A stretch of DNA of 51,556 nt. Origin: Candidatus Niyogibacteria bacterium. GTDB taxonomy: Bacteria; Patescibacteriota; Minisyncoccia; JACROR01. Shown piece after piece: positions 3,638 to 44,665 of this stretch (positions are counted from its first letter, which is position 1; each line of letters begins with the position of its first letter). The position numbers and the translations under genes were made by a program. The notes below the pieces were generated by a model that saw only the letters and a program-made list of their open reading frames with translations, made no database searches and was not told the origin of the DNA. Location of the stretch: assembly GCA_016214345.1 (NCBI GenBank), contig JACROR010000025.1, positions 1-51,556 on the forward strand. The letters run 5' to 3'.

Positions 3638-3709
3638 GGATGCGTAGCTCAACGGCAGAGCATCGAGCTTATACCTCGGTGGTTCCAGGTTCGAATCCTG
3701 GCGCATCCA
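3638..3709 (+). tRNA. tRNA-Ile, anticodon UAU
   Basis: Hand-folded 72-nt cloverleaf. Acceptor GGATGCG/CGCATCC, D arm GCTC..GAGC, anticodon arm TCGAG-CTTATAC-CTCGG (anticodon TAT), T arm CCAGG-TTCGAAT-CCTGG, discriminator A. No encoded CCA. Confidence 0.85.
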
Positions 3710-3745
3710 CAACATTTGTTTTTATTTCCGAGTGAATACAGATTA

Positions 3746-3826
3746 TACGAAGTATACCTTACGAAGTATACCTCGGTGCCTGCCTGCCGGTAGGCAGGGT
3801 TCCAGGTTCGAATCCTAGTGCGCCCA
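3746..3826 (+). pseudogene. truncated copy of the tRNA-Ile 3' half carrying a 20-bp palindrome insertion
   Basis: 14-bp tandem repeat tacgaagtatacct x2 (3746-3773). Then cctcggtg + cctgcctgccggtaggcagg (3779-3798) + gttccaggttcgaatcctagtgcgccca. This mirrors tRNA-Ile nt 36-72 with 3 substitutions. No 5' half is present. Confidence 0.6.
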
Positions 3827-3866
3827 TAAATATGCAAAAAGCCGCATTTTATCGCGACTTTTTGTA

Positions 3867-3894
3867 TTGACTTATATGGCTTATATTCTATCAT
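3867..3894 (+). promoter_or_regulatory. candidate sigma70-like promoter for the proteasome operon
   Basis: TTGACT (3867-3872), 16-nt spacer, TATCAT (3889-3894), about 55 nt upstream of ATG 3951. Hexamer match only. Confidence 0.35.
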
Positions 3895-3950
3895 TTAAAG
3901 TAAATCGCTTTTTGACATTTGTATAAAACAATACGCGCTGACAGGAGGTA

Positions 3951-4154
3951 ATGATTATGGAAGAATTAATGGTTGCGTTGCGGGAATTGCTGGACGGGGG
4001 ACTTAATTTGTTGCAAGGCAGAATGACTAAAATTCAAAAAGAACGCATACGCAAATTTTTGGCTGACGCACGGGAACTTTTGGAAAAAATATCTGTTCGC
4101 GCCGCGGAATCACAGAATTTTGATGTTGCGCAGAAAAAAATATTGAACAACTGA
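3951..4154 (+). CDS. heptad-rich 67-aa ORF; probably the N-terminal coiled coil of the Mpa-like ATPase, detached by a -1 frameshift at an A7 run
   Basis: AGGAGG at 3943-3948. Helical heptad-like sequence. The downstream frame is already open from 4124 and continues the coiled coil (NIEQLTADISQLTADLEKA). Confidence 0.5.
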   Translation: MIMEELMVALRELLDGGLNLLQGRMTKIQKERIRKFLADARELLEKISVRAAESQNFDVAQKKILNN

Positions 4155-4183
4155 CCGCCGACATTTCGCAATTAACCGCTGAT

Positions 4184-4987
4184 TTGGAAAAAGCCAGAAC
4201 CACGATAGGCGGCAAGGTTGCCACCATGGAACAATTATATAAAGAAATACTTCGTTTAAGGGCGCTTATAGAGCCGCCCTTAAGTTACGGATATTTCGTC
4301 CGCGTGTCGCCCGAAGTGGTTCGCGGAGTGGATCCTATTTTGGGCGAACCCGAGCCGATTAAGGTGGATATTTATGAACCGCACGGAAAATTAATTACGG
4401 TAAATTTAAATCCTGCCATAAATGTTGCTTTGTTGCGGGTCGGACAACGGTTGCGGCTTTCTCCGCAGGGCAATGTGATGACAGTCTTAAATGAATTCGC
4501 GAATTTGGGAGTTACCGCCACGGTGGCTGATGTTTTGGGCAAATTGGTGCTGGTGAATTCTTCCATGGATGAACAGCGTCTTTTACAGGTCGCGGCCAAT
4601 GTAGATGCCACGCAGATCAAATCCGGTTCCAAGATTCTTTACGATCCGATTACGAATATGATTGTCGCCATACTTCCCAAAGAAGAAAAGAGCAGTTTGC
4701 AGATGGAAGAGGTTAAGGCGGTTACTTATAACAGTATAGGCGGCATGGCGGAACAAATCGCTCAATTTGAGGAAAATATAGTTTTTCCGCGGCTTTATCC
4801 GGCCATTTTTCAAAAGTACCAGACCGACGTGCCCAAGGGCGCCGCTTTTTACGGCCCTCCGGGTTGCGGCAAGACTCTTTTGGCAAGAGCCGCGGCTTAC
4901 CGCATAAAACAAGGCGATAAAAAAGTGGTAATTTTCGTGGCGAGCGGTTCGGAATTTCTCGTTAAATGGGTGGGTGATTCCGAGTAA
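4184..4987 (+). CDS. mpa: proteasome-associated AAA ATPase (Mpa/ARC-like), N-terminal part: coiled coil, OB region, Walker A
   Basis: The coiled coil ends in PPLSYGYFVRV (compare Mpa PPSGYGVLL), followed by a double OB-like region and Walker A GPPGCGKT. The ORF ends at in-frame TAA 4985-4987 within the conserved KWVGDSE-x-KVRE segment. The track start is TTG; the first ATG is at 4226. Confidence 0.85.
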   Translation: MEKARTTIGGKVATMEQLYKEILRLRALIEPPLSYGYFVRVSPEVVRGVDPILGEPEPIKVDIYEPHGKLITVNLNPAINVALLRVGQRLRLSPQGNVMTVLNEFANLGVTATVADVLGKLVLVNSSMDEQRLLQVAANVDATQIKSGSKILYDPITNMIVAILPKEEKSSLQMEEVKAVTYNSIGGMAEQIAQFEENIVFPRLYPAIFQKYQTDVPKGAAFYGPPGCGKTLLARAAAYRIKQGDKKVVIFVASGSEFLVKWVGDSE

Positions 4988-5038
4988 AAAGTTCGTGAGC
5001 CCGCCGAATACGCCAAAGCTCATCCGGATATCATAGTT

Positions 5039-5776
5039 TTGTATGTGGTGGATGAGATTGACGCGGTGTGCCGCACCAGGGGATCAAGCGGACATGCCGG
5101 AGTGAACGATTCCATTGTTACGCAATTCAATAGTTTGCTTGACGGTTTTGTGGAGATACCGAATTTAATTTTCATCGGCATTACCAACCGGTTGGATTTG
5201 CTGGACAGTTCGCTTTTGCGTCCCGGGCGCATGGATCTTCAATTAAAGATTCCTCGGCCTGATCGCAAGGGCGCCAAGGAAATTCTGAAAATTTATTTGC
5301 GGCCGGATTTGCCTTTTCACGCCAAATATTTTAACGCGTTGAAATATCCCGATTTAAGCAGTCCTGAAACCGTCGTAGGTTATTTGATTGAAAAGACGCT
5401 GGATCACATCTATGGAGAAGTTGGTCCGAATGATGAGCGTCGCCGCAAAATCGCGACCATTGAATTTTTGGATACGGAAATGAGGCAGACGCTTTATATG
5501 GGCGATCTTATTTCCGGAGCCGTATTAAAGAGCATAGCCAATCGCGCGAAATTAACTGCCGCGTTGGCGGAGAAAAACGGAAAATCTGCCGGCGTGCGCT
5601 TAAAATATTTGCATGACGCGGTAGACGAAGTATTCCGCACGGTGCGCGACCAGATAAGCAAGAGCGGTCCGGAAGAATGGGCGCGAATGGCCGACCTGCC
5701 GTTAGATAAGCCATTTAGAGTTATAGCCGAAAAAGATGATAATGACCCTGACAGCGGCTATAGTCGTACGGCGTAA
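5039..5776 (+). CDS. mpa: proteasome-associated AAA ATPase (Mpa/ARC-like), C-terminal part: Walker B, SRH, lid
   Basis: Same frame as 4184..4987, and the frame is open from 4988. Walker B VLYVVDEIDA, CRTRGSSG, ITNRLDLLDSSLLRPGRMDLQLKIPRPD. These align closely to my recollection of Mpa. Confidence 0.85.
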   Translation: MYVVDEIDAVCRTRGSSGHAGVNDSIVTQFNSLLDGFVEIPNLIFIGITNRLDLLDSSLLRPGRMDLQLKIPRPDRKGAKEILKIYLRPDLPFHAKYFNALKYPDLSSPETVVGYLIEKTLDHIYGEVGPNDERRRKIATIEFLDTEMRQTLYMGDLISGAVLKSIANRAKLTAALAEKNGKSAGVRLKYLHDAVDEVFRTVRDQISKSGPEEWARMADLPLDKPFRVIAEKDDNDPDSGYSRTA

Positions 5777-5795
5777 GTATTGACTTAGCATTAGT

Positions 5796-5826
5796 AAACT
5801 CTCATCATATGATGAGAGTTTTTTGG
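5796..5826 (+). terminator. rho-independent terminator-like hairpin between the ATPase and the Dop-like gene
   Basis: Perfect 20-bp palindrome ctctcatcatatgatgagag (5799-5818), extended by aaa/ttt and followed by a T-run. Confidence 0.55.
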
Positions 5827-5857
5827 TCTTTGAAATACGAAATAGACAGGAGGAATT

Positions 5858-7408
5858 ATGGCTTTGAGCAGTATTTTCGGTACGGAACATGAATACGGTA
5901 TTTTTGCGCCTGACGTAAAAAAATCCGGAGAAAATTATTATATGGCATCAAGACAGGTGTCATACGATATTGTGCGTTTAGGGGCGGATGTTATCGGCGG
6001 ATCAAACAGACAAGGCAGCCTGCCTATCTCCATGGAATCGCTTTTGCGGGAATATGGCTGGGATGCCAAGGATTTCATTGGCGGCAGAGATGTCGCTGAC
6101 GCGTTGCGTTATATAGGCGGTAGCGGCTATATGCTTTGGAACGGAGCGAGGTTTTATGTTGACGCAGGTCATCCGGAATATTCCACTCCGGAATGCAGTA
6201 CGGCTTACGAGCTTTTAGTCGCTGAAAAAGCGGGAGAGAGGATTGTGGAAGCGGCGGGAAAAAAAGCCGAAGGTTTAATGGGTCGTAGAATTTATCTGCA
6301 CAAAGATAATTCCGATCGCCACGGCCATAGTTACGCGGCGCATGAAAATTATCTGGTAACTCCGAAATTGTTTGATTTGCTGGCGCGCGCCGAAGCGTCC
6401 GGTATTTTTAACGCCTGGATTAATTTTTTGGTTACCCGGCAAATTTGGGCCGGAGCAGGGAAGGCAGGGTCTGATTTTGGCGATGAGGCAATTTTTCAAT
6501 TGTCCCAGCGCGCGGAGTTTTTTTCTCGGATCAGTTCGTTAAATACCATGCAATACAGGGGGATTGTTAACACCAGAGATAATTCTTACGCGGACGATTC
6601 ATCGCATAAACGTTTGCATGTCATTTTGGGCGATGCCAATATGTGTGATGTGGCGATTTTTTTGAAAGTCGGCGTGACCGCCTTGTTTCTCAAAATGTTG
6701 GAAGACGATTTTTTCGCGGAGCATAAAACTTTTTTGACGGAGCCGTTACGCTCTCCCTTAGAAGTTCTTCACGATATATCGGTTGACGCGGAAATGCGTA
6801 AAAAATTTTTGTTGCGGAACGAAAAACGTATCGGCGCGTTGGAGGCGCAGGAAGAAGTTTTACGGCTAATCAAAGAATACGGCGGACAAAACCTTTCTTT
6901 ATTAAACGACACGGAAAGAAAGGTGGCGGAACATTTTGAGGAGGTGATTATTCGTTTAAGGCGCGATCCATCTTCGCTTTACGGATGGCTGGATCACATT
7001 ACCAAGCGCGCGATAATCGCGCGGCAGCTTAATCGTTTGGGCAAAGATGCGGGCGATCCGCTCGCGGTGCGTTTGGATTTTCTCTATCACGATATAAACC
7101 GCTCCGCCGGGCTTTTTTATAAGCTCTGCGACGCGGGGCAGATTGTGCAAGTCGCGCAAGAAATTGATGTGATAAGGGCTATGACGGAACCTCCTGAAAC
7201 CACGCGGGCGTGGTTACGCAGCCAAATTTTGAAAAAATTTCACGGCTCTTACGGGCGTTGGAATTTTCTCAATGTGAAAATATCGGATGGCTGGCAAGGG
7301 CTGGTATTGGATAATCCTTCCGCGGGTAGCCGGCAAATGTGTGAAAAATTATTGGAAAAATCGCGTACGGCGGAAGATTTTTTTAAGTTGTGGAAGGAGG
7401 AAAAGTGA
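5858..7408 (+). CDS. dop: Pup ligase/deamidase family protein, Dop-like (long insert after the first strand)
   Basis: 516 aa. FGTEHEYG, NGARFYVDAGHPEYSTPEC, HENYLV, LVTRQIWAGAGK, INTRD, RLHVILGDANM. There are about 85 aa between TEHEYG and NGARFY, as in Dop. AGGAGG RBS. Confidence 0.8.
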   Translation: MALSSIFGTEHEYGIFAPDVKKSGENYYMASRQVSYDIVRLGADVIGGSNRQGSLPISMESLLREYGWDAKDFIGGRDVADALRYIGGSGYMLWNGARFYVDAGHPEYSTPECSTAYELLVAEKAGERIVEAAGKKAEGLMGRRIYLHKDNSDRHGHSYAAHENYLVTPKLFDLLARAEASGIFNAWINFLVTRQIWAGAGKAGSDFGDEAIFQLSQRAEFFSRISSLNTMQYRGIVNTRDNSYADDSSHKRLHVILGDANMCDVAIFLKVGVTALFLKMLEDDFFAEHKTFLTEPLRSPLEVLHDISVDAEMRKKFLLRNEKRIGALEAQEEVLRLIKEYGGQNLSLLNDTERKVAEHFEEVIIRLRRDPSSLYGWLDHITKRAIIARQLNRLGKDAGDPLAVRLDFLYHDINRSAGLFYKLCDAGQIVQVAQEIDVIRAMTEPPETTRAWLRSQILKKFHGSYGRWNFLNVKISDGWQGLVLDNPSAGSRQMCEKLLEKSRTAEDFFKLWKEEK

Positions 7409-9000
7409 AGAGAATATATTCCACGGAAGTTGAATATGGCAGCACGGTCATAAAATTATCCGATGGGAGCTGTCATTTTGATATTCCCGGAAGAGTTGAG
7501 TTAAAAAATGCCATGTTGACCAATGTGGTCAGTTCAAAGCGATTAATGGAGCAAGAATTCCAATTTCCGCAGTTTATGAAAAATGGCAGCAGGGCTTATC
7601 TGGATTTAAATCACATTGAATATGCCGCTCCGGAATGCATTACTCCGGAGGATGCCGTAGCCGCGGAATTGGCCGGCGGCGCTTTGCTTGCGGATGGTTT
7701 GGTTCACGATGGTTTTCGCTTGATTCTGATAAAAGACAATGTGGCTTTAAAAAAGTTTGAAACTGCCGGCAGGGATTATCGGGATGTTGGAAGCTATGCC
7801 GCGTTGCTTACTTCCTATGTTTATGACAGTGAGCAGAGATTGGCTACTTGCGGTTGCCATGAAAATTACTCGTTTAATTTGGATAGGATTGCCCGGCTTG
7901 CGCAATCGCCGTTATCTCCAAAAGAGAATCCCGCTTTTCGATTGGCGCATGCCGATTATTTAGCTCAAAAATTGGCCGCGTTTTTGATTGCCAGGCAGAT
8001 TTTTGCCGGTGCCGGAACTTTTTATTTCGGCAGGCCGTCTATTTCCGTGCGCAGCCTGTTTATTGATATGTTGCATAGCAATATTACTACACAACATAAG
8101 CCTCTCATTAATACCAAAAATGAACCGCATGGCAAAGTTCATCGTCTGCATTTGATTCTGGGAGACGGTAATATGGCGGAAGTCGCGTCTTTTCTTAAGT
8201 TGGGGACTACCGGTTTAGTGCTTCGGCTGCTGGAAGACGATAAAATAGGCCCGTCATTGGAGCTGGAGAATGTTTCTGACGCGACAGCTTTGGTTAAAGA
8301 GATCGCGTTTGATCGCGCTTGCTCCGCACGGTTGCTCAAGATGAAAAATGGCGACTTATTGACTGCCTGCGAATTGCAAAGAAAGTTTTTAGATCTCGCG
8401 GCGAGTCATTATCCCAAGGAAAACGACTCCGAAGCGGTTAGGTGTTCCACGGAAAAAGTATTTGAATGGTGGAATTATGTTTTGGACAAATTGGAGAACG
8501 GTGAAATGAAAGACTTGGTTGGCGTGCTTGATTGGCCGACTAAATTCCATCTTGGGGAATTGCTTTTGAAAAGATACGGGATTGCCATGTCTGATTTGCC
8601 GAAAGCGATTTTGCGGCACGAAAAACGCGCTGAAGTGGCGGCTCGTTTGAGAATGCTGGAACAGAGATACCACGAATTGTCGGAAAACGGATTATCTGCG
8701 CGTTTAAAGGCGCAAGGTATCATGACTCGTATAATTGATCCCGCTAAAATAATTTATTTCAAGGATCATTCTCCCCGAGAAACGCGGGCTTACGGGAGAA
8801 GCGAGTTGCTTAGGTTTGTGGAATCGCGATGTCCCGTTTTTCTCCTAAGAAAGTGCGATTGGGGTCAAATTACTTTGGTAAAAAAAGACGCTGATGAAAC
8901 CATCTCGGAAGTGTTGGAGTTTGAGATGGATGACCCGTTTGTGTCCATGGCCTTGCCAATAGAGCATTTTTTAGTTAAAAATGGTTGGAGAAAGGAGTGA
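7405..9000 (+). CDS. pafA: Pup ligase/deamidase family protein, PafA-like
   Basis: STEVEYG, NGSRAYLDLNHIEYAAPEC, CHENYS, IARQIFAGAG, INTKNEPH, RLHLILGDGNM. Likely GTG start at 7405 after AGGAGG, overlapping the dop stop (GTGA). The track ORF starts at 7390. Confidence 0.8.
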   Translation: MKRIYSTEVEYGSTVIKLSDGSCHFDIPGRVELKNAMLTNVVSSKRLMEQEFQFPQFMKNGSRAYLDLNHIEYAAPECITPEDAVAAELAGGALLADGLVHDGFRLILIKDNVALKKFETAGRDYRDVGSYAALLTSYVYDSEQRLATCGCHENYSFNLDRIARLAQSPLSPKENPAFRLAHADYLAQKLAAFLIARQIFAGAGTFYFGRPSISVRSLFIDMLHSNITTQHKPLINTKNEPHGKVHRLHLILGDGNMAEVASFLKLGTTGLVLRLLEDDKIGPSLELENVSDATALVKEIAFDRACSARLLKMKNGDLLTACELQRKFLDLAASHYPKENDSEAVRCSTEKVFEWWNYVLDKLENGEMKDLVGVLDWPTKFHLGELLLKRYGIAMSDLPKAILRHEKRAEVAARLRMLEQRYHELSENGLSARLKAQGIMTRIIDPAKIIYFKDHSPRETRAYGRSELLRFVESRCPVFLLRKCDWGQITLVKKDADETISEVLEFEMDDPFVSMALPIEHFLVKNGWRKE

Positions 9001-9005
9001 GGGAG

Positions 9006-9638
9006 ATGTTCGACAACTTAAAATCTACTACTGTGGTTTCCGCGGTTTACGGTTCCGGAGCGATTATTGCCGCGGACAGACAGGCCACCGGCGGTCATGA
9101 TTTGCATAAGTTGCCGTACGACGTGTTCAAAATCGTAGGGCTGACTGATTTTGCCATGGCCGGCATATCCGGTTTTCCCAAGACTTTGGAGACTTTGGAA
9201 GAAGTGAAGCGGGTGTTTGGTCTCTGGAAGATTTTATACGATCGGGAGGTGTCTATTGAGGGCCAGTTTAATTTTCTGAAACGGGTGCCTCTGATAGTTC
9301 CTGTGGGCAAAGAAGTAACGGTGAGTGGTATTTTAATGGCTGCTTTTGACCGTGATATTGGCAAGGGCAGAGTATTTTTATTTGATCCCGCGCTTGCTAT
9401 GGAGATTCCCAACTATGCGGCTATCGGCAGTGGCGGTACGGCATGTTTCAGCGCTTTGGAGCTTGGCCAATACCGTACGGATATGCGTTTTGAGGAAGCC
9501 GTCAGGAAAGTTTCCGGGGCGCTCCGATATTCTCATGAACATAATGCCGGAGTGGGAGATAATTTTTTCGGATTTCAATTGGATGCGGGCGGAATTAGGG
9601 AAATTTCTTCTTTGCTTAATGCCAAGGAGGTAGGATAA
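9006..9638 (+). CDS. prcB: 20S proteasome beta subunit (Ntn hydrolase, catalytic Thr)
   Basis: ATG 9006 gives MFDNLKS|TTVVSAVYGSGAIIAADRQATGG, a 7-aa propeptide followed by Thr1, with Asp17 and a Lys in FKI. GSG motif later in the sequence. The track ORF starts at 8985. Confidence 0.85.
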   Translation: MFDNLKSTTVVSAVYGSGAIIAADRQATGGHDLHKLPYDVFKIVGLTDFAMAGISGFPKTLETLEEVKRVFGLWKILYDREVSIEGQFNFLKRVPLIVPVGKEVTVSGILMAAFDRDIGKGRVFLFDPALAMEIPNYAAIGSGGTACFSALELGQYRTDMRFEEAVRKVSGALRYSHEHNAGVGDNFFGFQLDAGGIREISSLLNAKEVG

Positions 9639-10258
9639 TGGATCGTCAGTTTGGCAAAGAAAAGGCGCGTCGCGAATGGGTTGGTTCTAAATTAAAGAAT
9701 GCCGCTCCGATTGCGATAGTTCCTTTTAAGGACGGTTTGGCGGCGGTAACTGCCAAATCGCATTTTCGCAAAGTGCGCGCGGTTGACCAACATATTTTGT
9801 TTGCCGCTACGGGCGAATATGAGAGCGTAAATATATTGCACAGCTGGCTGGTGGAAGACGTGTTACGTATAATAAAAACCTTTTCCGAGCGCGATGTGTT
9901 TATGGAATCGGTTGTGGATAATCCAGACGGAGCAATAGCGCATGTGGCGCGCGCGTTTTATTCGGATCCGGTAGTCGCGGAATTAGCGCTGTTGTTTGCG
10001 GAAAAAGGGAAATTTTTCGGTGTGGTGATCAATTCGTTTGGAGAACGGAAATATTTAGACGGCGATGGCGCGGTTATCGGAGGCAAACCCGAAATGGGAG
10101 AATTGCTTACGAAGAAATTACGCGAAGCTCCGCCGTCCACGGAAAAAGAAGCTGTCGCGCTGGCAGCCGAAGTTTTGAAAATAAATGGCGAACAGCGTGA
10201 ATGGGAAGTCGGAGTTTTGTCCGGTTCCGGCATAAGGTTTACGAGAGGAGGAGAATAA
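9638..10258 (+). CDS. prcA: 20S proteasome alpha subunit (short, 206 aa)
   Basis: Proteasome-fold paralog without an N-terminal Thr. It directly follows prcB with a TAATG overlap. Assignment rests on position plus weak similarity. Confidence 0.7.
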   Translation: MDRQFGKEKARREWVGSKLKNAAPIAIVPFKDGLAAVTAKSHFRKVRAVDQHILFAATGEYESVNILHSWLVEDVLRIIKTFSERDVFMESVVDNPDGAIAHVARAFYSDPVVAELALLFAEKGKFFGVVINSFGERKYLDGDGAVIGGKPEMGELLTKKLREAPPSTEKEAVALAAEVLKINGEQREWEVGVLSGSGIRFTRGGE

Positions 10259-10422
10259 TGGGCGATCAGGATCGCAAAACGCGAAGGCGCCCGCCCGGCG
10301 TTAAACCGCCGAGCGAGGAAGATAAGCGCGAACAGGATAAGGAGATAGATAAGGGCATAGACGATCTTCTGAAAGAAGATGAAGATCTGGCACAGAGACG
10401 GAAAGAAGAAGAAGGGGAATAA
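10258..10422 (+). CDS. pup: Pup/UBact-like prokaryotic ubiquitin-like tag, C-terminal Gly-Glu
   Basis: 54 aa, 33 of them charged, with no hydrophobic core. IDKGIDDLLKEDEDL resembles the Mpa-binding helix of Pup. Ends ...EEGE. The ATG overlaps the prcA stop (TAATG). The track ORF start at 10201 lies inside prcA. Confidence 0.7.
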   Translation: MGDQDRKTRRRPPGVKPPSEEDKREQDKEIDKGIDDLLKEDEDLAQRRKEEEGE

Positions 10423-10446
10423 TTGTTCTTTGCAGAATTTTTATAA

Positions 10447-10482
10447 AAATCCCGCTATGATATGGCGGGATTTTTTTTTATT
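10447..10482 (+). terminator. rho-independent terminator of the proteasome operon
   Basis: Hairpin aatcccgc-tatgatatg-gcgggatt followed by a T9 run. Confidence 0.8.
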
Positions 10483-10494
10483 TTGTAAGATAAG

Positions 10495-12406: not shown

Positions 12407-12428
12407 GCCTGCCTGCCGGCAGGCAGGC
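12407..12428. repeat. perfect 22-bp palindrome of element family A; likely recG terminator
   Basis: gcctgcctgccggcaggcaggc lies 42 nt 3' of the recG stop. On the minus strand a T7 run follows about 12 nt later. Confidence 0.7.
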
Positions 12429-14597: not shown

Positions 14598-14669
14598 TGC
14601 CCTCAGTAGGAATCGAACCTACATCGCAAGCTCCGCAAGCTTGCGTCCTGTCCATTGAACGATGAGGGC
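14598..14669 (-). tRNA. tRNA-Arg, anticodon GCG
   Basis: 72-nt cloverleaf on the minus strand. Acceptor GCCCTCA/TGAGGGC, anticodon arm CAAGC-TTGCGGA-GCTTG, T arm GTAGG-TTCGATT-CCTAC, discriminator A. Confidence 0.85.
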
Positions 14670-14696: not shown

Positions 14697-14752
14697 GTGC
14701 CTGTCCATTGCCCGCCCGAGGCGGGTCAGCCTTGGGCTGAAACGATGAGGGC
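14697..14752 (-). pseudogene. truncated copy of the tRNA-Arg 5' end (acceptor + D arm) with a 30-nt double-hairpin insertion in the D loop
   Basis: On the plus strand, cctgtccattg + cccgcccgaggcgggtcagccttgggctga (14711-14740) + aacgatgagggc. The flanks are identical to tRNA-Arg nt 1-23. There is no anticodon or T arm. Confidence 0.6.
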
Positions 14753-14856
14753 GTATAATTAAAATTTTCAATTTTATAATACACAATTTTCAAACGCGAA
14801 ACAATAAAAGCAGGGTTTGGAAATTAGAAATTAATAATTGTAAATTATCGTTGATA

Positions 14857-18625: not shown

Positions 18626-18873
18626 GGCGGAAGGGGGGTGGCCCCGCAACAGCGGGATTGCTGTTTGTTACTAATCGCTTCGCTCTTAGACAAACAGGGA
18701 AGATTCAATTTTTTTTGGAAAATTTCGCGAAGCACTCCTAGTGTTTCGTTCAAGTCCTATGCTTTTTTCAATTTACTTCGCTCATTTCGGAAGGGGTGGG
18801 ACTCAATTTTCTTTTGGAAAATTCCGGGGAATGCCCCCGGCATTCCCTTCTCATCCCACCCCTTCCTTACTCG
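18626..18873. repeat. array of tRNA-Ser(UGA)-derived fragments and associated hairpins
   Basis: The 29-bp segment cttcgctcatttcggaaggggtgggactc at 18776-18804 is identical to 18874-18902 (tRNA 3' end plus flank). A degenerate copy ggcggaaggggggtgg is at 18626-18641. An inverted copy cccaccccttcc is at 18855-18866. Palindrome ggggaatgcccccggcattccc. Repeated caatttt(c)ttttggaaaatt. Confidence 0.65.
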
Positions 18874-18885
18874 CTTCGCTCATTT

Positions 18886-18970
18886 CGGAAGGGGTGGGAC
18901 TCGAACCCACAAGCCCCTTGCGGGGCGCTGGTTTTCAAGACCAGTTCCTTACCATTCGGAGCACCCTTCC
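18886..18970 (-). tRNA. tRNA-Ser, anticodon UGA
   Basis: 85 nt, class II. Acceptor GGAAGGG/CCCTTCC, anticodon arm CTGGT-CTTGAAA-ACCAG, long variable arm GCCCCGCAAGGGGC, T arm GTGGG-TTCGAGT-CCCAC, discriminator G. Confidence 0.9.
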
Positions 18971-19045
18971 ATAATTTTTTTTAACTTGTTTTATTTTGAC
19001 AAGCAAGGAGCGAGTGAATCCGCCATTTAGCGGATTAACATCATT

Positions 19046-19065
19046 CCTGCCTACCGACAGGGAGG
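19046..19065. repeat. degenerate family A palindrome copy
   Basis: cctgcctaccgacagggagg. Confidence 0.5.
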
Positions 19066-19114
19066 CGAGCGCCGTCAAAACAAAGGGTTTTTTTTTATTA
19101 CCCTTTATATTATA

Positions 19115-19147: not shown

Positions 19148-19164
19148 GACCTAATTTTTTTGAG

Positions 19165-19184
19165 CCTGCCTACCGGCAGGCAGG
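19165..19184. repeat. family A palindrome copy
   Basis: cctgcctaccggcaggcagg, followed by cgaagcgatt (module aatcgcttcg in reverse). Confidence 0.7.
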
Positions 19185-19239
19185 CGAAGCGATTAGAAAA
19201 TGGAAGCACTCTCTGTGGTGCGATCTGATCTCGCGGCGT

Positions 19240-24647: not shown

Positions 24648-24715
24648 GAATAAAAATGATCTAGCTTTTAATCATAGCAGATCACAGGTGTTTTTAGAAA
24701 TTAAGAAAGTTATTT

Positions 24716-24892
24716 CACTGCGGAGAGGGCGGCCTGCTTGCCGGTAGGCAGGGACTTGGTCACAAATAATTTTCCTGACGGAAAATTTTCGCGACCCCGC
24801 CTCGCTGCGTCAGCCTTCGCTTCGCGAAACTGACGCAACGCTTCGGCTTTCAAGTCCCGCACGCAAGCAAAGCAGTTTGCTTGCTCCCCTCC
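24716..24892 (-). other. tRNA-Ser(GCU) 3'-end copy split by a family A palindrome, plus a conserved structured element (paralog of 44263..44354)
   Basis: cactgcggagagggcgg + cctgcttgccggtaggcagg (24733-24752) + gact repeats the tRNA 3' end. 24789-24892 aligns in inverted orientation with 44263-44354. Confidence 0.6.
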
Positions 24893-24920
24893 TTCATTCA
24901 CTCGCTACGCTCATTCACTG

Positions 24921-25007
24921 CGGAGAGGGCGGGACTCGAACCCGCAAGCGGCTTTTGGACCGCTACAGATTAGCAATCTGCTGCCTTACCATTCGGCGCA
25001 CCTCTCC
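24921..25007 (-). tRNA. tRNA-Ser, anticodon GCU
   Basis: 87 nt, class II. Acceptor GGAGAGG/CCTCTCC, anticodon arm GCAGA-TTGCTAA-TCTGT, long variable arm, T arm GCGGG-TTCGAGT-CCCGC, discriminator G. Confidence 0.9.
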
Positions 25008-25137
25008 TTAAAAAAATCAAAATTACGATATTCCGCCGAAGCGGAATAATTCTTAAATTAGCACGAAAATCTTTGTGGGGCAATCCGCGGATAATGTTTT
25101 ATTTTTTTAAGTTTTTAGCTTTCAGTTTTTAGTTTTT

Positions 25138-36784: not shown

Positions 36785-36791
36785 TGATAAA

Positions 36792-37367: not shown

Positions 37368-37368
37368 T

Positions 37369-37821: not shown

Positions 37822-37828
37822 TTAAGTA

Positions 37829-39877: not shown

Positions 39878-39901
39878 ACTTGGACGCTCGGTGTCCAAGT
39901 T
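39877..39901 (+). terminator. hairpin between ligA and gatC (weak terminator or attenuator)
   Basis: aacttggac-gctcggt-gtccaagtt, followed only by gggaatttt. Confidence 0.35.
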
Positions 39902-39922
39902 GGGAATTTTGCGTTAACTAAT

Positions 39923-40264
39923 ATGGATATAGAAAAAATCAGTCAGCTGGCGCGGCTAAAATTAAATGACCAAGAAAAGGAAACTTTAAGTAAAGAGCTC
40001 AATTCAATTTTGGCGTACATAGATAAATTGAAAGAATCCGACGTGAGAGAGGCGCCGCCAGCCCAAGGCTGGTCCGCCTCGGGCGGAGAAGATTTTGCAG
40101 GGGCGTTTAATGATCTTCGTGAAGATGAGGTGCCGCCAGCCCAAGGCGGATCCCTGCCTACCGGACAGGCGGGCGCCTCGGGCGGAGAAGATCTGGTGGA
40201 GGCGTCTCCGGAAAAGGCCCGCGGATTTATCAAGGTTAAAGGAGTTTTTGATGTCCAGAATTGA
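39923..40264 (+). CDS. gatC: Asp/Glu-tRNA amidotransferase subunit C carrying two in-frame repeat-element insertions
   Basis: N-terminus IEKISQLARLKLNDQEKETLSKELNSILAYIDKL and the LREDEV motif are typical of GatC. The extra segments PPAQGWSASGGED and PPAQGGSLPTGQAGASGGED are encoded by palindromic elements. Confidence 0.8.
   Translation: MDIEKISQLARLKLNDQEKETLSKELNSILAYIDKLKESDVREAPPAQGWSASGGEDFAGAFNDLREDEVPPAQGGSLPTGQAGASGGEDLVEASPEKARGFIKVKGVFDVQN
40055..40086. repeat. family B double-hairpin element, in frame within gatC
   Basis: ccgccagcccaaggctggtccgcctcgggcgg is the reverse complement of the type inserted in the tRNA-Arg fragment at 14711-14740. Confidence 0.7.
40133..40185. repeat. 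family B element with a nested family A palindrome, in frame within gatC
   Basis: ccgccagcccaaggcgg-atc-cctgcctaccggacaggcgg-gcgcctcgggcgg. Confidence 0.7.
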
Positions 40265-41696
40265 TTTAAATTCATTATCTATAGCCAAGACGCGAGAGCT
40301 GGTCACGGCGGGCGATATTTCTTGTCGGGAGTTGGTGGAAATTTATCACGGACAGATAAAAGAGCATCGCGATCTTAACGCTTATTTGGAGGTTTTTGAC
40401 GACGCTTATGAGTTGGCCGAAAAAGAGGATATTGCCATAAAAAGCGGGCAATCTCCCAAATTATTGTCTGGCGTGGCGTTGGCCATTAAAGACAATATGT
40501 TGATAAAAAACAAAAAAATTACGGCCGGATCAAAAATGCTGGAAGGTTACACGGCGTCTTACGATGCTTATGTAATTAAAAAATTACGCGACGCCGGAGT
40601 CATTTTTTTGGGGAGAACCAATATGGATGAGTTTGCCATGGGATCGTCTTGTGAGAATTCGGCATATGGCGTTACCAAAAATCCTTGGGATCATTCGCGC
40701 GTGCCCGGAGGATCGTCGGGTGGTTCGGCGGCGGCTGTGGCATCGCACCAATGTTTGGCCGCGCTGGGTTCGGATACGGGAGGATCTATCCGCGAACCGG
40801 CGAGTTTTTGTGGGACAGTAGGATTAAAGCCAACTTACGGTTCGGTATCGCGCAGTGGGCTTATCGCTATGGCGTCATCTTTGGATGTGATCGGCCCTTT
40901 TACCAAGAGCGTGGACGACGCGGAAGAGATTTTTAAAATTATTCTGGGAAAAGATCCCAAAGACGCCACCACCGTAACTTATATTACCAAAAATTCGGGC
41001 AAGCATCCGGTGATAGGCGTGCCGCGCGAATTTTTTTCACTAAAAGAGCGAGGCAAAGAAGGGGTGGATGGCGATGTCGCGAAAGCGCTGAGTGAGGCGA
41101 TAGATTCGCTTAAATCCGCCGGTTACGAAATAAAAGAAGTATCTTTGCCGAACGCGGATTACGCGTTGGCTTGTTATTATATTTTGATGCCGGCGGAAGT
41201 TTCTTCCAATCTGGCGCGCTTTGACGGTATAAGATATGGCGCGAGAGCAAAGGCGGAAAATTTGTTGGAAATATACGCCAATACGCGGGGAGAGAAGTTC
41301 GGCCGGGAAGTCAGACGCCGTATTATTTTGGGAACTTATGTGTTGTCCGCCGGATATTATGATGCTTATTACAGCCGCGCGGAGAAGGTGCGTTGGCTGA
41401 TTAGGCGTGATTTTGAAAATGTGTTTCGCGATGTGGATGTTATAATTTCTCCGACCGTAGCCACGCCCGCTTTCAAGATCGGAGAAAAAACCGCCGATCC
41501 TTTGTCTATGTACTTGTCGGATATTTTCACCATTCCCGCAAATTTAGCGGGAATTCCGGCAATGTCCGTGCCGTTCGGTTTCGCGGAGCGTGATGGCAAA
41601 AAGCTTCCGATCGGCGTGCAATTGATGGCGCCACGATTTGCCGAGAGCGTATTATTTGATGTCGGACGCGCGTTGGAGCGCGCTCGCAGCGTGTAA
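40251..41696 (+). CDS. gatA: Asp/Glu-tRNA amidotransferase subunit A (amidase signature family)
   Basis: ATG 40251 (MSRIDLNSLSI...). GGSSGGSAAAVA and GSDTGGSIR amidase signature. Overlaps the gatC end by 14 nt. The track ORF extension from 40095 is not credible. Confidence 0.93.
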   Translation: MSRIDLNSLSIAKTRELVTAGDISCRELVEIYHGQIKEHRDLNAYLEVFDDAYELAEKEDIAIKSGQSPKLLSGVALAIKDNMLIKNKKITAGSKMLEGYTASYDAYVIKKLRDAGVIFLGRTNMDEFAMGSSCENSAYGVTKNPWDHSRVPGGSSGGSAAAVASHQCLAALGSDTGGSIREPASFCGTVGLKPTYGSVSRSGLIAMASSLDVIGPFTKSVDDAEEIFKIILGKDPKDATTVTYITKNSGKHPVIGVPREFFSLKERGKEGVDGDVAKALSEAIDSLKSAGYEIKEVSLPNADYALACYYILMPAEVSSNLARFDGIRYGARAKAENLLEIYANTRGEKFGREVRRRIILGTYVLSAGYYDAYYSRAEKVRWLIRRDFENVFRDVDVIISPTVATPAFKIGEKTADPLSMYLSDIFTIPANLAGIPAMSVPFGFAERDGKKLPIGVQLMAPRFAESVLFDVGRALERARSV

Positions 41697-41702
41697 TTAT
41701 TT

Positions 41703-42257
41703 ATGATGGACACATTTCCCGTTTTAAACAGCGCAGCTCGTTTTATAAATGATATTATTTTTGGTATTGCCGTTTTTCCCTGGCAGCCGTTCATTTTGAA
41801 GTTAAAAATAGTCGCGCTTATTTTATCGGCAATATTCATATCGGGCATTATTTATGCTTCCCGCAAGGCGTTTGCTTTGATGCAAAAAAAGAATATAGCG
41901 ACTTTTTTTGATGTTTGGAGCGAGCTTCCTGTGGAGAAGAGGGCGTCTCGTTGGGCGAATGTTAAAAAACGCCTGGATTCGGATAATGTTTCTGATTGGA
42001 AATTCGCCATTTTGGAAGCGGACGGCATTTTAGATGATATTATGAAAAAGATCGGTTATAGGGGAGAAACTTTGGGCGAGCGGCTGATGAGGATAGAGCC
42101 AAGCGATTTTGATTCTTTGCAGGAAGTGTGGGCGGCGCACAAAGTGAGAAACCGCATCGCGCACGAAGCGGCGACTTATCAGATTTCTAAAACCGAAGCG
42201 GAGCAAGTAATCGCCTATTACGAAAAAGGTCTTAAAGAACTGGAATATATCTCTTAG
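41703..42257 (+). CDS. hypothetical membrane protein
   Basis: 184 aa with one TM helix (VALILSAIFISGIIY) and a helical C-terminal domain. No known motif. Confidence 0.55.
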   Translation: MMDTFPVLNSAARFINDIIFGIAVFPWQPFILKLKIVALILSAIFISGIIYASRKAFALMQKKNIATFFDVWSELPVEKRASRWANVKKRLDSDNVSDWKFAILEADGILDDIMKKIGYRGETLGERLMRIEPSDFDSLQEVWAAHKVRNRIAHEAATYQISKTEAEQVIAYYEKGLKELEYIS

Positions 42258-42336
42258 AGTTAAGACGGTTTACAATCCCAATAGACCATGCTAAGGTTCC
42301 GACAAGTTCGGAACTTTTACAATTTTAGGAGGTGTT

Positions 42337-42777
42337 ATGGGCACTAAAGAAAAGGACGATATCAATAGCATGTTGTTGGCAATTCTTGAAAATTGTCCCG
42401 AAGACGCTTATCTTCGCATGAGGGCGGGTCAGGTGATTGATTTGCAGGAGCGGCTACATGTGGAAGAAACAGAATTGTTGAGACTAATTCAGGAATTTCA
42501 GGTAGAGTGCCGGCATGAAGCGATAACGGAAGTCAAGAAATATGATTTTGCTTACAGCTCGCGCGTGGGCGGAATCGGTATTGGCGGGCTGCATGTAATG
42601 TTGGGACATAGGTGCTCCAAGTGCAAAATTTTTAAGCCGAGGAAAGAAGGGCCGCCGTTTGAGGTTTGCTATAGGTGCGGCGGTGATATGAAATTTGATC
42701 GCCATGACTTATATTGTGGAGATAGTGTGCATACTTATAAATGCATCGCTTGCGGCCATGAACACGATGCGACCTAA
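42337..42777 (+). CDS. hypothetical Cys-rich (zinc-ribbon-like) protein
   Basis: 146 aa. AGGAGG RBS. CSKC...CYRC...CIAC pairs. Followed by its own strong terminator. Confidence 0.55.
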   Translation: MGTKEKDDINSMLLAILENCPEDAYLRMRAGQVIDLQERLHVEETELLRLIQEFQVECRHEAITEVKKYDFAYSSRVGGIGIGGLHVMLGHRCSKCKIFKPRKEGPPFEVCYRCGGDMKFDRHDLYCGDSVHTYKCIACGHEHDAT

Positions 42778-42790
42778 TTAAGAATAAATT

Positions 42791-42830
42791 AAAACCTCAT
42801 CAGCTCAAAGCTGATGAGGTTTATTATTTT
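42791..42830 (+). terminator. rho-independent terminator
   Basis: 12-bp perfect stem acctcatcagct-caa-agctgatgaggt followed by ttattatttt. Confidence 0.8.
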
Positions 42831-42866
42831 GTTTTAATGTGATAGATTAGTGTATAGAAATTCAAT

Positions 42867-42941
42867 GCGGCGGTAGTTCAGCCCGGTTAGAACGCTCGCC
42901 TGTCACGCGAGAGGTCGTGGGTTCAAATCCCATCCGCCGCG
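42867..42941 (+). tRNA. tRNA-Asp, anticodon GUC
   Basis: 75 nt. Acceptor GCGGCGG/CCGCCGC, anticodon arm CTCGC-CTGTCAC-GCGAG, T arm GTGGG-TTCAAAT-CCCAT, discriminator G. Confidence 0.9.
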
Positions 42942-43066
42942 CATAGTTCGGAACGAACAATAAAATATGATGGGATTTGAACGGAGCGATATTATCGCTC
43001 CGCGGGATTTTCATAGGAGAAAATCAAATCCCATCCGCCGCGCATAGTTCGGAACGAACAATAAAA
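42924..43066 (+). repeat. 42-bp perfect direct repeat duplicating the tRNA-Asp 3' end plus 24 nt of flank
   Basis: caaatcccatccgccgcgcatagttcggaacgaacaataaaa occurs at 42924-42965 and 43025-43066. The 59-bp spacer contains an inverted T-arm copy (gatgggatttgaac) and the hairpin ggagcgat-att-atcgctcc. Confidence 0.85.
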
Positions 43067-43100
43067 AATCCTGTCGCTTGAGAGCAATAGGATTTTTTTA
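43064..43100. terminator. bidirectional terminator-like hairpin between the tRNA-Asp region and pyrH
   Basis: aaaaaatcct...aggattttttt. The stem is short (6 bp) with a large loop. Confidence 0.4.
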
Positions 43101-43823
43101 TCAATATATAAAGGAGCCGATTTGTTGTTTGGTGACCGCGCGGATCAGATTGCCTTTTTTGAAAAAATTGAACACCAGAATCGGCATTTGGTGCTCGCGG
43201 GCCAATCCTATGGCGGCGCTGTCCATGATGCGCAGATTTTTTTTCATGACTTCGTCATAGGAAGTCTTTTCTATAAGGCGCGCGTTAGCGTGTTGATTGG
43301 GGTCTTTATCGTAGATTCCGTCCACTTTGGTGGCTTTAAGCACTATTTCCGCGCCGATGTCCAGCGCTTTTTCCACGGCCGCGGTATCGGTTGTGAAGTT
43401 GGGATTTCCGGTTCCGCCGGCTAAGATGACCACCCTGCCTTCTTCCATGTGGTGTTCGGCGCGACGTTTTATGTATTGTTCGCAGATTTGCGGCATGACG
43501 ATGGAACTTTGCACTCGCGTAGAAATTTCCATTCTTTCTAATTGGTCTTGGATGGCAAGCGCGTTGACGACGGTGCAGAGCATCCCCATGCGGTCAGGAG
43601 TAGTTGAATCATGGAACAATGGCTTTAATTCTTTGCCGCGAATGAAGTTTCCGCCGCCTATTACGATGGCCAATTTCAGTTTGGGAAATTCATGCAGGAG
43701 ATTTCTAATCTCCCGCGTGATAAAAGCCAGCGAGCGTTTTATGTTCAGCGGTTTTTTGGGACTTCCCAAGGACTCTCCCGTAAGTTTTAAAAGAACGATA
43801 TTATAGTATTCTGGCACTTCCAT
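43101..43823 (-). CDS. pyrH: UMP kinase
   Basis: 240 aa, amino-acid-kinase fold. LLKLTGESLG, VIGGGN, GTGNPNFTTDTAA, KATKVDGIYDKDP. Confidence 0.92.
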   Translation of the reverse strand: MEVPEYYNIVLLKLTGESLGSPKKPLNIKRSLAFITREIRNLLHEFPKLKLAIVIGGGNFIRGKELKPLFHDSTTPDRMGMLCTVVNALAIQDQLERMEISTRVQSSIVMPQICEQYIKRRAEHHMEEGRVVILAGGTGNPNFTTDTAAVEKALDIGAEIVLKATKVDGIYDKDPNQHANARLIEKTSYDEVMKKNLRIMDSAAIGLAREHQMPILVFNFFKKGNLIRAVTKQQIGSFIY

Positions 43824-43893
43824 TTTCTTCCTCCATTTCCGTATTTTTTCAATTGTTTACATAATAATTTAATTGGCGCAAAATGCAATACTT

Positions 43894-44027
43894 GCCCGCA
43901 CACTAATAATGGCATTGTGCTTTTATACTGTCTTGGCAGTTTTTTAAAAATCAAGGGTAATTAAAATTTAGATATAAATTTTTCTCTATAAGGGCGCGCA
44001 GTGTAATGCCATTATTAGTGTGTGGGC
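43894..44027. repeat. 23-bp inverted repeat pair flanking an 88-bp AT-rich spacer in the pyrH / tRNA-fMet divergent region
   Basis: gcccgcacactaataatggcatt (43894-43916) versus aatgccattattagtgtgtgggc (44005-44027). 18 bp are perfect. Confidence 0.7.
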
Positions 44028-44064
44028 TTGCAATGGCGTGGCATTTTTCTTATACTGTGTTTTG

Positions 44065-44089
44065 TATATCGCGGGGTGGAGGAGTAGTA
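44065..44089 (+). pseudogene. truncated copy of the initiator tRNA 5' end (5 nt of flank + nt 1-20)
   Basis: tatatcgcggggtggaggagtagta is identical to 44136-44160. It is followed by the small hairpin ccgc-cgga-gcgg. Confidence 0.7.
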
Positions 44090-44140
44090 TTCCGCCGGAG
44101 CGGAGCTGATAACAAAATAAGATAATTTGAGGCAATATAT

Positions 44141-44211
44141 CGCGGGGTGGAGGAGTAGTACCTCGGGAGGCTCATAACCTCCAGGCCCGGGTGCAATTCC
44201 CGGCCCCGCAA
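44141..44211 (+). tRNA. initiator tRNA-fMet, anticodon CAU
   Basis: 71 nt. C1 x A72 mismatch (CGCGGGG / CCCCGCA), anticodon arm GGAGG-CTCATAA-CCTCC, T arm CCGGG-TGCAATT-CCCGG (unusual loop), discriminator A. Confidence 0.8.
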
Positions 44212-44225
44212 CAACAAAATAAAAA

Positions 44226-44252
44226 TACCCCTCTTGAGAGGGCATTTTTATT
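44226..44252 (+). terminator. weak terminator after tRNA-fMet
   Basis: ccctc-ttga-gaggg followed by catttttattta. Confidence 0.45.
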
Positions 44253-44262
44253 TATGTTTTGT

Positions 44263-44354
44263 GAGGGCAGCGAGCAAACTGCTTTGCTCGCGTCGGGAAT
44301 TGCAAGCCGGAGCAATGTCCGCCCGAGGCGGACAAAGCGAGGCGGGGTCGCGAG
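44263..44354 (+). other. conserved structured element (candidate ncRNA or composite repeat) downstream of tRNA-fMet; paralog of 24789..24892
   Basis: Shared blocks AGCgAGCAAACTGCTTTGCTcGCGT, CGGGA, AAGCCGgAGC and GCGAGGCGGGGTCGCGA. The internal hairpin differs in sequence between copies but keeps its position. Confidence 0.55.
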
Positions 44355-44472
44355 CCCAAAAATTAAGGAGCGAAGCGATTGTAATTTTTGAGGACTCGTG
44401 ACCAATTCCCAGTTATCTCATTTCTTTAATAAATCTTGTCCAGAGTTAAAAATTGCCTTATATTATTAAATA

Positions 44473-44561
44473 TGTCGGTGTAGCTTCTGCCCGAGGCAGC
44501 CCCCTGCCTACCGAGCAGGCAGGCGCCTTGGGCGGGCAGTGGTAGGGCAAGTTTGCCGGCA
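44473..44561 (+). pseudogene. truncated tRNA-Met 5'-end copy with a 50-nt composite palindrome insertion in the D arm
   Basis: gtcggtgtagctt + ctgcccgaggcag-ccc-cctgcctaccgagcaggcagg-cgccttgggcggg + cagtggtagggc, then tgccggca, which can pair with the 5' end. Confidence 0.6.
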
Positions 44562-44593
44562 AATAGATGGAATTTAATAATTATCAATACATT

Positions 44594-44665
44594 GCCGGCG
44601 TAGCTCAGTGGTAGAGCGAGGGACTCATAAACCCTAGGCCGGAGGTCCGATTCCTCCCGTCGGCA
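44594..44665 (+). tRNA. tRNA with CAU anticodon (elongator Met, or Ile2 if lysidinylated)
   Basis: 72 nt. Acceptor GCCGGCG/CGTCGGC (one G-U), anticodon loop CTCATAA with a 31-39 A-A mismatch, T arm GGAGG-TCCGATT-CCTCC, discriminator A. Confidence 0.8.

Follow-up and report, generated by a model that had tools for sequence, protein, structure and literature searches.

The closest described counterparts of the loci discussed here are the tRNA-targeting integrative elements, together with their non-autonomous, cis-mobilizable derivatives: a direct repeat running from the T or anticodon loop to the tRNA 3′ end bounds the insert, element-borne sequence restores the gene, hybrid junctions arise beside a different tRNA, and copies accrete in tandem. 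The same traits mark E1, a structured element of about 130 nucleotides (nt) that lies beside tRNA genes in public metagenomes and is present twice in the stretch of DNA analysed here (the window), which is a complete 51.6-kb contig (51,556 nt) of a Patescibacteria (candidate phyla radiation, CPR) bacterium. Unlike those integrative elements, the units at these loci measure 55–200 nt, hold no genes and have no integrase nearby; their body is a covarying fold with a tRNA-complementary arm, and 5′ fragments and nested halves of tRNA genes also occur.

Several other known systems share part of this picture. The attC sites of integrons and the attP site of CTX phage have a strand-specific conserved fold with non-Watson–Crick pairs and a duplex formed from inverted site copies, as does E1, and integron cassettes, like E1 units, are stacked in arrays beside a fixed site. 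In contrast to attC and CTX attP, however, E1 is strongly conserved in primary sequence, has no open reading frame (ORF) and targets the tRNA T loop, its recombination as a single strand being something that we infer; neither an intI integrase nor an attI site was found adjoining E1 in the survey of its neighbouring proteins. Rickettsia palindromic elements and repetitive extragenic palindromes (REP) resemble a second group of sequences at these loci – short GC-rich intergenic palindromes, some nested, some in frame in a protein gene (gatC) – which nonetheless differ in measuring 20–47 nt, in sharing an identical 20-mer among very different genomes and in preferring tRNA loops (D, variable and T), with no RAYT-type transposase seen.

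Free-standing homing endonucleases at tRNA genes, such as phage T4 SegB (PMC2330249), likewise target tRNA genes and co-convert their flanks; comparable are LAGLIDADG ORFs near some E1 loci and an IMG/VR contig (L048) in which a GIY-YIG ORF has a duplicated 5′ exon on one side and a tRNA with an intron on the other. Unlike at SegB-type loci, there is no endonuclease gene in the window and no ORF in E1. In the split and permuted tRNA genes of Nanoarchaeota and red algae, tRNA halves are flanked by GC-rich complementary sequence, as they are here, yet in the window an intact resident gene stands at every locus and the fragments are interrupted and partnerless (the Ile 3′ part, for one, has no 5′ part in the window). 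Identity with a miniature inverted-repeat transposable element was rejected: the inverted arms are tRNA-derived, the duplications range from 25 to 46 nt instead of being fixed, and no parent element was found. As regards IS200/IS605, whose insertion 3′ of a target is guided by base pairing, E1 units do begin directly behind the tRNA and have an arm complementary to it; TnpA was not seen locally.

An earlier note, written from the window sequence alone, had pointed out that all seven tRNA genes of the window are accompanied by a truncated copy of their own 5′ or 3′ end, and had offered three explanations: a miniature element that targets tRNA genes and restores any gene it has split, remnants of excised islands overwritten by repeats, or functional tRNA-like minihelices. 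The first comes closest to the evidence, given E1 at tRNA 3′ ends, its arrays, hybrid junctions in the T loop and the replacement seen at tRNA-Ile. In our reading, to which we give a probability of roughly 0.55, the truncated copies represent the ends and scars of small repeat elements that encode no protein, reside in tRNA genes and bring replacement tRNA sequence, plus the pieces so displaced. Such an element would enter at a conserved loop of a tRNA gene and bring a replacement piece or a whole tRNA copy, so that the gene would stay intact and the displaced piece would be left beside it. Elements of the E1 kind start right after the tRNA 3′ end, have an arm complementary to the T arm of that tRNA and end with a tRNA copy from the T loop to the discriminator base; they would move by crossover within shared T-loop sequence and so accumulate in arrays. 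A second kind would replace whole or half genes at the anticodon or D loop, so that 5′ halves are left upstream of the gene and 3′ halves downstream of it, in some cases nested. GC-rich palindromes would then settle in the dead pieces. The crossover is presumably enzymatic, with a recombinase supplied in trans and the folded single strand as its probable substrate, and the internal arm would be retargeted to the new tRNA.

For the partial copies themselves, each tRNA with 10 nt on either side was aligned to its own 350-nt flanks (local alignment tolerating long gaps), with 228 other window segments as the null. Six of the seven tRNAs outscore all control segments, whose maxima lie at 36.5–42.7: tRNA-Ile scores 57.8 (null maximum 39.7), Arg 45.9 (42.7), Ser-UGA 66.3 (42.7), Ser-GCU 53.9 (40.1), Asp 61.9 (38.6) and fMet 65.5 (36.5). 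The Met-CAU copy, at 33.0 (39.8), falls within the null range and is not significant alone; its layout is that of the Arg fragment. The earlier note was thus right that a partial copy stands beside all seven tRNAs, with Met-CAU the weaker case, and that this incidence is not due to chance. Its distances also hold (the Ile fragment starts 56–57 nt after the gene, the Arg fragment lies about 30 nt upstream, and the Asp and fMet spacings are 101 and 71), as does the interruption of four fragments by palindromes (Ile, Arg, Ser-GCU and Met-CAU); the repeats match at 43/43 (Asp), 25/25 (fMet) and 29/29 (Ser-UGA) positions. It had overlooked the element 3′ of the fMet gene, the T-arm or acceptor sequence that recurs in inverted orientation inside the Ser and Asp spacers, and the mismatch between the Ile fragment and its own resident gene.

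The boundaries of the fragments always fall within a loop of the tRNA: in the T loop for Ser-UGA, Ser-GCU, Asp and a short piece 3′ of fMet, in the anticodon loop for Ile, and in the D arm for Arg, fMet and Met-CAU. A stricter and less sensitive fragment test, which leaves out the flanks, is passed by three of the seven window tRNAs and by 16 of 92 tRNAs at other E1-bearing loci, and none of three tRNAs is affected in a relative whose FtsH is 76% identical (L063-65). Given these two comparisons, the load of seven in seven is a feature of this lineage: the partial copies are a lineage-specific infestation, not a general property of tRNA genes.

At tRNA-Ile(UAU) (3638–3710, + strand; ARAGORN, Rfam), the resident gene is 'allele 1' (acceptor GGATGCG/CGCATCC), which is also resident in L063. 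Downstream, from the anticodon loop to the 3′ end, runs the 3′ part of a displaced tRNA-Ile, 'allele 2' (3767–3826, + strand; ending in CCTAGTGCGCCCA), in which a palindrome of the module B type described below sits in the variable loop (3779–3798) and which is preceded by a junction palindrome, TATAC-GAA-GTATA (TACGAAGTATACCT twice, 3746–3773). The corresponding loci of relatives were reached via FtsH homologues, as no record of the exact FtsH ORF was found; the window FtsH has 67–70% identity to proteins named Giovannonibacteria or Patescibacteria and 95% to two uncultured relatives. (The UMP kinase gene, which lies between three of the tRNAs, was tried as an anchor in GTDB genomes and a protein collection and abandoned: it gave relatives at 41–62% without synteny.) The comparison of empty and filled syntenic sites that the earlier note had proposed showed the ftsH–tRNA-Ile locus to be syntenic in the relatives and variable in state. 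It is empty in L063-65 (FtsH 76%), as are the Arg and Val genes there; L061 (95%) has a 5′ half upstream only, with a palindrome in the D loop, the window a 3′ part downstream only, L062 (95%) a 5′ half and a 3′ part, and L066 (76%) a resident gene enclosed by two nested pairs of 5′ and 3′ halves, with acceptors pairing inside (TCCGCCC/GGGCGGA) and outside (TCCACC(A)/GGGTGGA).

The window fragment abuts a flank that in L061 directly follows the intact gene, and it differs at two positions from the residents of L061 and L062 as against five from its own resident; conversely, the L062 fragment has two mismatches to the window resident and seven to its own. Alleles 1 and 2 are distinguished by three compensated acceptor pairs and one T-stem pair, and such a difference between genomes 95% identical in FtsH argues for replacement by recombination, not evolution in place. 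The Ile fragment is thus the fossil of a displaced allele. The junctions at this locus are small palindromes made of loop sequence (TACGAAG abutting TATAYC in the window and L066; GCTTGT-CTGC-ACAAGC at 5′ halves).

E1 itself came to light through the mutual homology of the DNA after tRNA-Ser(GCU) and the DNA after tRNA-fMet, which are its two window copies and in which the 3′-side fragments form the terminal strand. Read in tRNA orientation, the element starts with a hairpin of fixed core (CAAA-CTGC-TTTG), followed by the reverse complement of the T stem and loop of the neighbouring tRNA; its middle consists, in order, of AAGCCGGAGC, a variable hairpin, GCGAGGCGGGGTC and a third hairpin; and it closes with GTGACC and a repeat, in direct orientation, of everything in the tRNA from its T loop to its end – the 'fragment' of the earlier note.

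A search pattern taken from the left part of E1 matches 78 stretches among public metagenome contigs, of 31 to 57% GC and from groundwater, rumen, gut and soil. An ARAGORN tRNA ends at most 200 nt upstream in 51 of 76 distinct copies, and where the tRNA is no more than 120 nt away (44 distinct copies), 26 anticodon species are represented. The arms follow the tRNA concerned: the internal arm, P′, is complementary to its own tRNA at 10/10 positions in 21 of these 44 copies, compared with 1.3% of pairings with other tRNAs, and the terminal arm is identical to its own tRNA at 14/14 positions in 9/31, compared with 0/902 other-tRNA pairings. The hosts are Patescibacteria and Elusimicrobia, the latter recognised by a 93–96% PGK match adjoining E1. 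In IMG/VR, the 15-mer GAGGCGGGGTCGCGA gave mostly chance matches in high-GC phages and one genuine E1 locus.

RNAalifold, applied to 40 E1 copies, gives five helices. When 94 distinct copies were aligned to a covariance model, 94.7% of cells were paired as against 74.1% in shuffles (none of 500 reached the observed value), a figure somewhat inflated by the fitting of the alignment to the model, although an alignment made by MAFFT only gives the same covariation. Compensatory changes are found in 28 of the 29 pairs, and controls in which the partner was slid along are 29–47% paired. Two positions are predominantly G·U, and as G·U would be C·A on the opposite strand, the structure belongs to the tRNA-sense strand, whether as RNA or as single-stranded DNA. 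The helix that contains the 'fragment' is a closed imitation of a T arm. The model finds 108 E1 copies in 80 loci, many of them tandem, and detects one on which it was not trained, right after tRNA-fMet in a Candidatus Yanofskybacteria genome (83 bits).

E1 appears to have been undescribed until now, being absent from Rfam 15 and from the literature searched. On the window, only tRNA passes among the Rfam 15 models, which include tmRNA, group I and II introns, ribozymes and HEARO; scanned with the same covariance models, the two E1 loci of the window yield no credible match up to E ≤ 10, and four E1 loci from elsewhere none up to E ≤ 0.1. BLAST against phage and plasmid collections returned no meaningful match to E1, literature searches by sequence and keyword met its motifs in no relevant context, and the tRNA fragments treated in PMC9897764 are the classical ones only. 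As a tentative proposal, well short of an even bet, E1 might belong to a class of structured single-stranded elements not described before, made of RNA or of folded DNA: a self-contained, protein-less integration module whose T-arm-imitating helix would serve much as a folded att site of the attC/CTX type or a guide does. In Patescibacteria and Elusimicrobia at the least, it would build arrays like those of cassettes at the 3′ ends of tRNAs, with its enzyme encoded elsewhere. To see in the complementary arm the primer-binding site of a retro-element, or a guide RNA, is speculation.

Signs of mobility come from two sets of contigs. In L106, a hybrid fragment lies 80 nt past an intact tRNA-Pro, its left 22 nt belonging to tRNA-Pro and its right 26 nt to a tRNA-Gly of the same contig, with the two parts overlapping in the T-loop core GAGTTCGATTCTC; then come a linker, an E1 with Gly-type arms and, as the end of the unit, the 3′ end of tRNA-Pro. 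These are the two hybrid junctions to be expected if a block of Gly 3′ part, linker and E1 had entered the Pro T loop through crossover in the core common to both. Behind tRNA-Met in Elusimicrobia stand units in the order a-b-a-(truncated b), each starting directly past the discriminator base and ending with a copy of the tRNA 3′ end, and the order and number of units vary among related contigs. Since each unit would recreate a landing site, arrays can build up, and the repeats in the window would come to include native flank.

Of the two full copies in the window, one belongs to tRNA-Ser(GCU) (24920–25007, − strand), which like all seven tRNAs was found by both ARAGORN and Rfam. This E1 (24748–24887, − strand; 117 bits) has an arm P′ (GGGACTTGAA) that pairs with the start of the tRNA fragment, and the fragment, extending from the T loop to the 3′ end plus 7 nt of flank (24714–24758, − strand), is its terminal arm, interrupted by palindrome B (24732–24753). 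The other copy (44267–44413, + strand; 108 bits) lies past a terminator-like hairpin behind tRNA-fMet (44141–44212, + strand; C1×A72, unusual T loop TGCAATT), with an arm, CGGGAATTGCA, complementary to the fMet T arm and an end in which GTGACC runs directly into AATTCCC. The odd T loop of this initiator tRNA is also found in L102 and L164.

Upstream of the fMet gene stands what looks like an older whole copy, gutted (44065–44120, + strand): 5 nt of flank and the first 20 nt of the gene (44065–44089, 25/25, spacing 71 nt) are followed by a palindrome, TTCCGCCGGAGCGGAG (44090–44105), a remnant of the anticodon loop, GCTGATAAC, and a 10-nt copy of the 3′ flank of the gene, AACAAAATAA. Next to tRNA-Ser(UGA) (18885–18971, − strand) is a cut-down unit of the E1 type (18776–18884, − strand) comprising a linker, an inverted T-stem/acceptor copy (18854–18866), a hairpin (18827–18847), a further, AT-rich hairpin and, in direct orientation, the tRNA 3′ end repeated with 12 nt of flank (18776–18804, 29/29). 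It keeps the linker, inverted acceptor copy, AT-rich third hairpin and terminal arm of E1 and has lost the core; at the same tRNA end in L152, a Hainich contig, stands a full E1 to which it is homologous. A second, older and diverged tRNA-Ser 3′-end fragment (CCACCCCCCTTCCGCCA) may lie at 18626–18642 (− strand), on weak evidence. Behind tRNA-Asp(GUC) (42867–42942, + strand), the element (42969–43069, + strand) consists of a 55-nt insert – an inverted T arm (42969–42982) and a hairpin (42982–43002) – and a second copy of the tRNA 3′ end, the duplication taking in 26 nt of flank (42923–42968 and 43024–43069; spacing 101 nt, identity 43/43).

The remaining two loci carry 5′ fragments. That of tRNA-Arg(GCG) (14598–14669, − strand) covers positions 1 to about 26 (14700–14753, − strand), with a 30-nt GC-rich palindromic module in its D loop (14711–14740). 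Before tRNA-Met(CAU), of the elongator or Ile2 type (44593–44666, + strand), lies a probable 5′ fragment of a tRNA-Met (44474–44548, + strand; weak on its own), whose acceptor is GTCGGTG as against GCCGGCG in the resident: GTCGGTGTAGCT (10/12) is followed colinearly by CAGTGGTAG (9/9), and the D loop is split by nested palindromes (44489–44535). The Arg tRNA and the UAU-reading tRNA-Ile are both unusual tRNAs.

The GC-rich palindromes are a separate, intruding family and thus a third player beside E1 and the replaced gene copies. Module B, CCTGCCTRCCGGYAGGCAGG, has five window matches with at most three mismatches (12407–12428, 19045–19066, 19164–19185, 3779–3798 and 24732–24753) where none is expected, and two more diverged copies are nested within another palindrome; it occupies three tRNA fragments and an E1 hairpin. 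Two GC-rich modules of the same family as those interrupting the tRNA fragments sit in frame in gatC (39923–40264, + strand), at 40061–40084 and at 40139–40185, the second with B nested in it, and lengthen the protein by about 26 residues between its conserved blocks, so that 92 residues span a profile of 66 positions. The exact 20-mer CCTGCCTRCCGGYAGGCAGG recurs in 48 unrelated IMG/VR stretches (L006-L053) of 33–70% GC, where short direct repeats of the local sequence often flank it. Several of these copies lie inside tRNAs or fragments: one is in the variable loop of a tRNA-Met of a phage, another in a duplicated 5′ exon, within the D loop. BLAST of the palindromes against plasmids gave nothing meaningful.

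Of the rival explanations, the most serious develops the third idea of the earlier note, functional minihelices, and does not exclude the reading of the copies as ends and scars of elements. E1 and its relatives would be non-coding RNAs serving the host, with a closing helix that mimics the acceptor/T-arm minihelix of the neighbouring tRNA; excised by tRNA-processing enzymes, they would act in tRNA maturation, in quality control or as decoys for tRNA-targeting nucleases or integrases, and the fragments would be functional strands. That the fragment is one strand of a covarying helix mimicking the T arm, that G·U pairs lie on the tRNA-sense strand and that unpaired motifs are conserved all speak for such a role, as do units that begin exactly past the discriminator base and end at a discriminator-like position, the presence of E1 behind tRNA-fMet in four separate CPR lineages and the retention of the helix-forming part where the acceptor part of the fragment has decayed. 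Yet terminator hairpins often stand between tRNA and E1, copies form tandem arrays or are truncated and degenerate, the L106 unit has the arms of the wrong tRNA, many tRNAs of relatives are without E1, and the half-gene fossils at Ile, Arg and Met go unexplained; on balance we think this unlikely. Rather less probable still is that no dedicated element exists, and that tRNA genes are either prone to breakage or the sole conserved anchors for incoming diverged DNA, repair or homology-facilitated illegitimate recombination leaving partial duplications, fold-back junctions and captured filler. The junctions are indeed small palindromes built from adjacent tRNA sequence (TATAC-GAA-GTATA; GCTTGT-CTGC-ACAAGC), the duplications take in 5 to 26 nt of native flank, alleles are swapped between 95%-identical relatives, and type IV pilus and ComF-like genes are on the contig, with DprA in relatives. 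Such processes cannot, however, yield a covarying 130-nt scaffold conserved in two phyla, nor do they account for arrays of alternating unit types.

The second idea of the earlier note, excised islands, fares badly. If the fragments were attL/attR scars of integrase-bearing prophages or islands, almost wholly deleted, one could understand why boundaries fall in the anticodon and T loops, why repeats reach or pass the tRNA 3′ end as at classical att sites, and why the L106 hybrids resemble attL and attR. But only 30–200 nt separate the copies at all seven loci, this intervening DNA is a conserved structured unit, no integrase or remnant of one was detected in the window or among the proteins neighbouring some 80 E1 loci, and integration that restores the 3′ end does not give upstream 5′ fragments or nested complementary halves, which makes the idea highly improbable. 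Chance resemblance or an assembly artefact is barely credible: the Met-CAU fragment alone lies within the null range, and the recurrence of palindrome B, exact over 20 nt, among unrelated IMG/VR contigs so different in GC content does look artefactual at first, but six loci exceed all nulls, the same structures appear in independent ENA, Logan, JGI and NCBI assemblies, and the palindromes vary, nest and preserve the gatC frame.

Several observations weigh against our own reading of the copies as ends and scars of protein-less elements. Among 140 non-redundant E1-neighbouring proteins there is no recombinase, transposase or reverse transcriptase (tyrosine and serine recombinases are absent from their 25 most frequent families, and the sole mobile-type family seen more than once is LAGLIDADG_3, with four members); nor, as the earlier note had correctly stated for recombinases, did Pfam scans of about 44 window ORFs find an integrase, transposase, reverse transcriptase or homing endonuclease. 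Neither an excised form nor a true empty/filled pair of E1 itself was observed. Crossover in the T loop accounts for the terminal arm, not for the match of the internal arm to a new tRNA, and a conserved fold with G·U pairs is equally expected of a functional RNA. The 5′ fragments have no conserved companion element; the Ser-UGA unit scores as noise in the E1 covariance model, and the Asp element, at a noise-level 6.7 bits, shares with E1 its layout only.

If the reading holds, tRNA genes of ultra-small bacteria have been colonised by gene-less elements that copy themselves while the tRNA keeps working, and that leave a readable fossil record of replaced tRNA alleles. The compact fold of E1, with its target-matching arms, makes it possible to test how an integration site is recognised when no recombinase is encoded next to it, whether systems other than integrons make use of folded single strands, and how tRNA alleles turn over in uncultured lineages. 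E1 also provides a new marker and covariance model for Patescibacteria and Elusimicrobia, and such fragments can mislead tRNA annotation.

Some further modules were seen in tRNA-flanking DNA. A third small palindrome, TTCCGCCGRAGCGGA(A/G), recurs by or within tRNA 5′ regions (window 25031–25046 and 44090–44105; L061 at about 7650), and a short motif, GAGCGAAGCGATT(A/G)GTAA, recurs with its relatives in tRNA-flanking spacers (window 18672–18690, 19186–19200 and 44365–44385; L066 6700–6790), which suggests further small modules there. In the IMG/VR contig L048 (497–1470), the anticodon loop of a tRNA-Arg(UCG) is interrupted by a group I intron that contains an HNH ORF; upstream of this tRNA are the GIY-YIG ORF and the duplicated 5′ exon, whose end coincides exactly with the intron site and whose D loop contains B. 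A GIY-YIG homing endonuclease as the agent, an idea taken from L048 and L023, was rejected, as none was found in the window and related GIY-YIG loci are without tRNAs.

The contig encodes the housekeeping proteins FtsH, RecG, M1 peptidase, IMPDH, GatCA, LigA and UMP kinase, as well as a type IV pilus cluster and a Pup-proteasome cluster. The latter (3958–10258) comprises an AAA ATPase, two genes of the Pup-ligase family and proteasome subunits, and a similar cluster is present in the relative L066 (7356–13940). The gene of the proteasome-associated AAA ATPase (4184–5776) has a single in-frame TAA at about 4985–4987, within a conserved ...GDSE*KVRE... motif, and could be a pseudogene, a sequencing error or a case of recoding; its L066 homologue is one protein of 613 amino acids. 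No conserved gene was found next to palindrome B or E1, save for pilin-like ORFs and a small number of LAGLIDADG ORFs. In the CPR contigs L102, L112, L138 and L110/L119, free-standing LAGLIDADG_3 ORFs occur 0.3–1 kb from tRNA/E1 loci, and a motif upstream of them, CCTGTCACGAGGTATAATAT, is conserved. In the window, pilin-like genes with an N-terminal methylation motif are tandemly duplicated (33267–33367/33847–33947 and 36249–36318/36814–36883), their 5′ regions being 86–92% identical.

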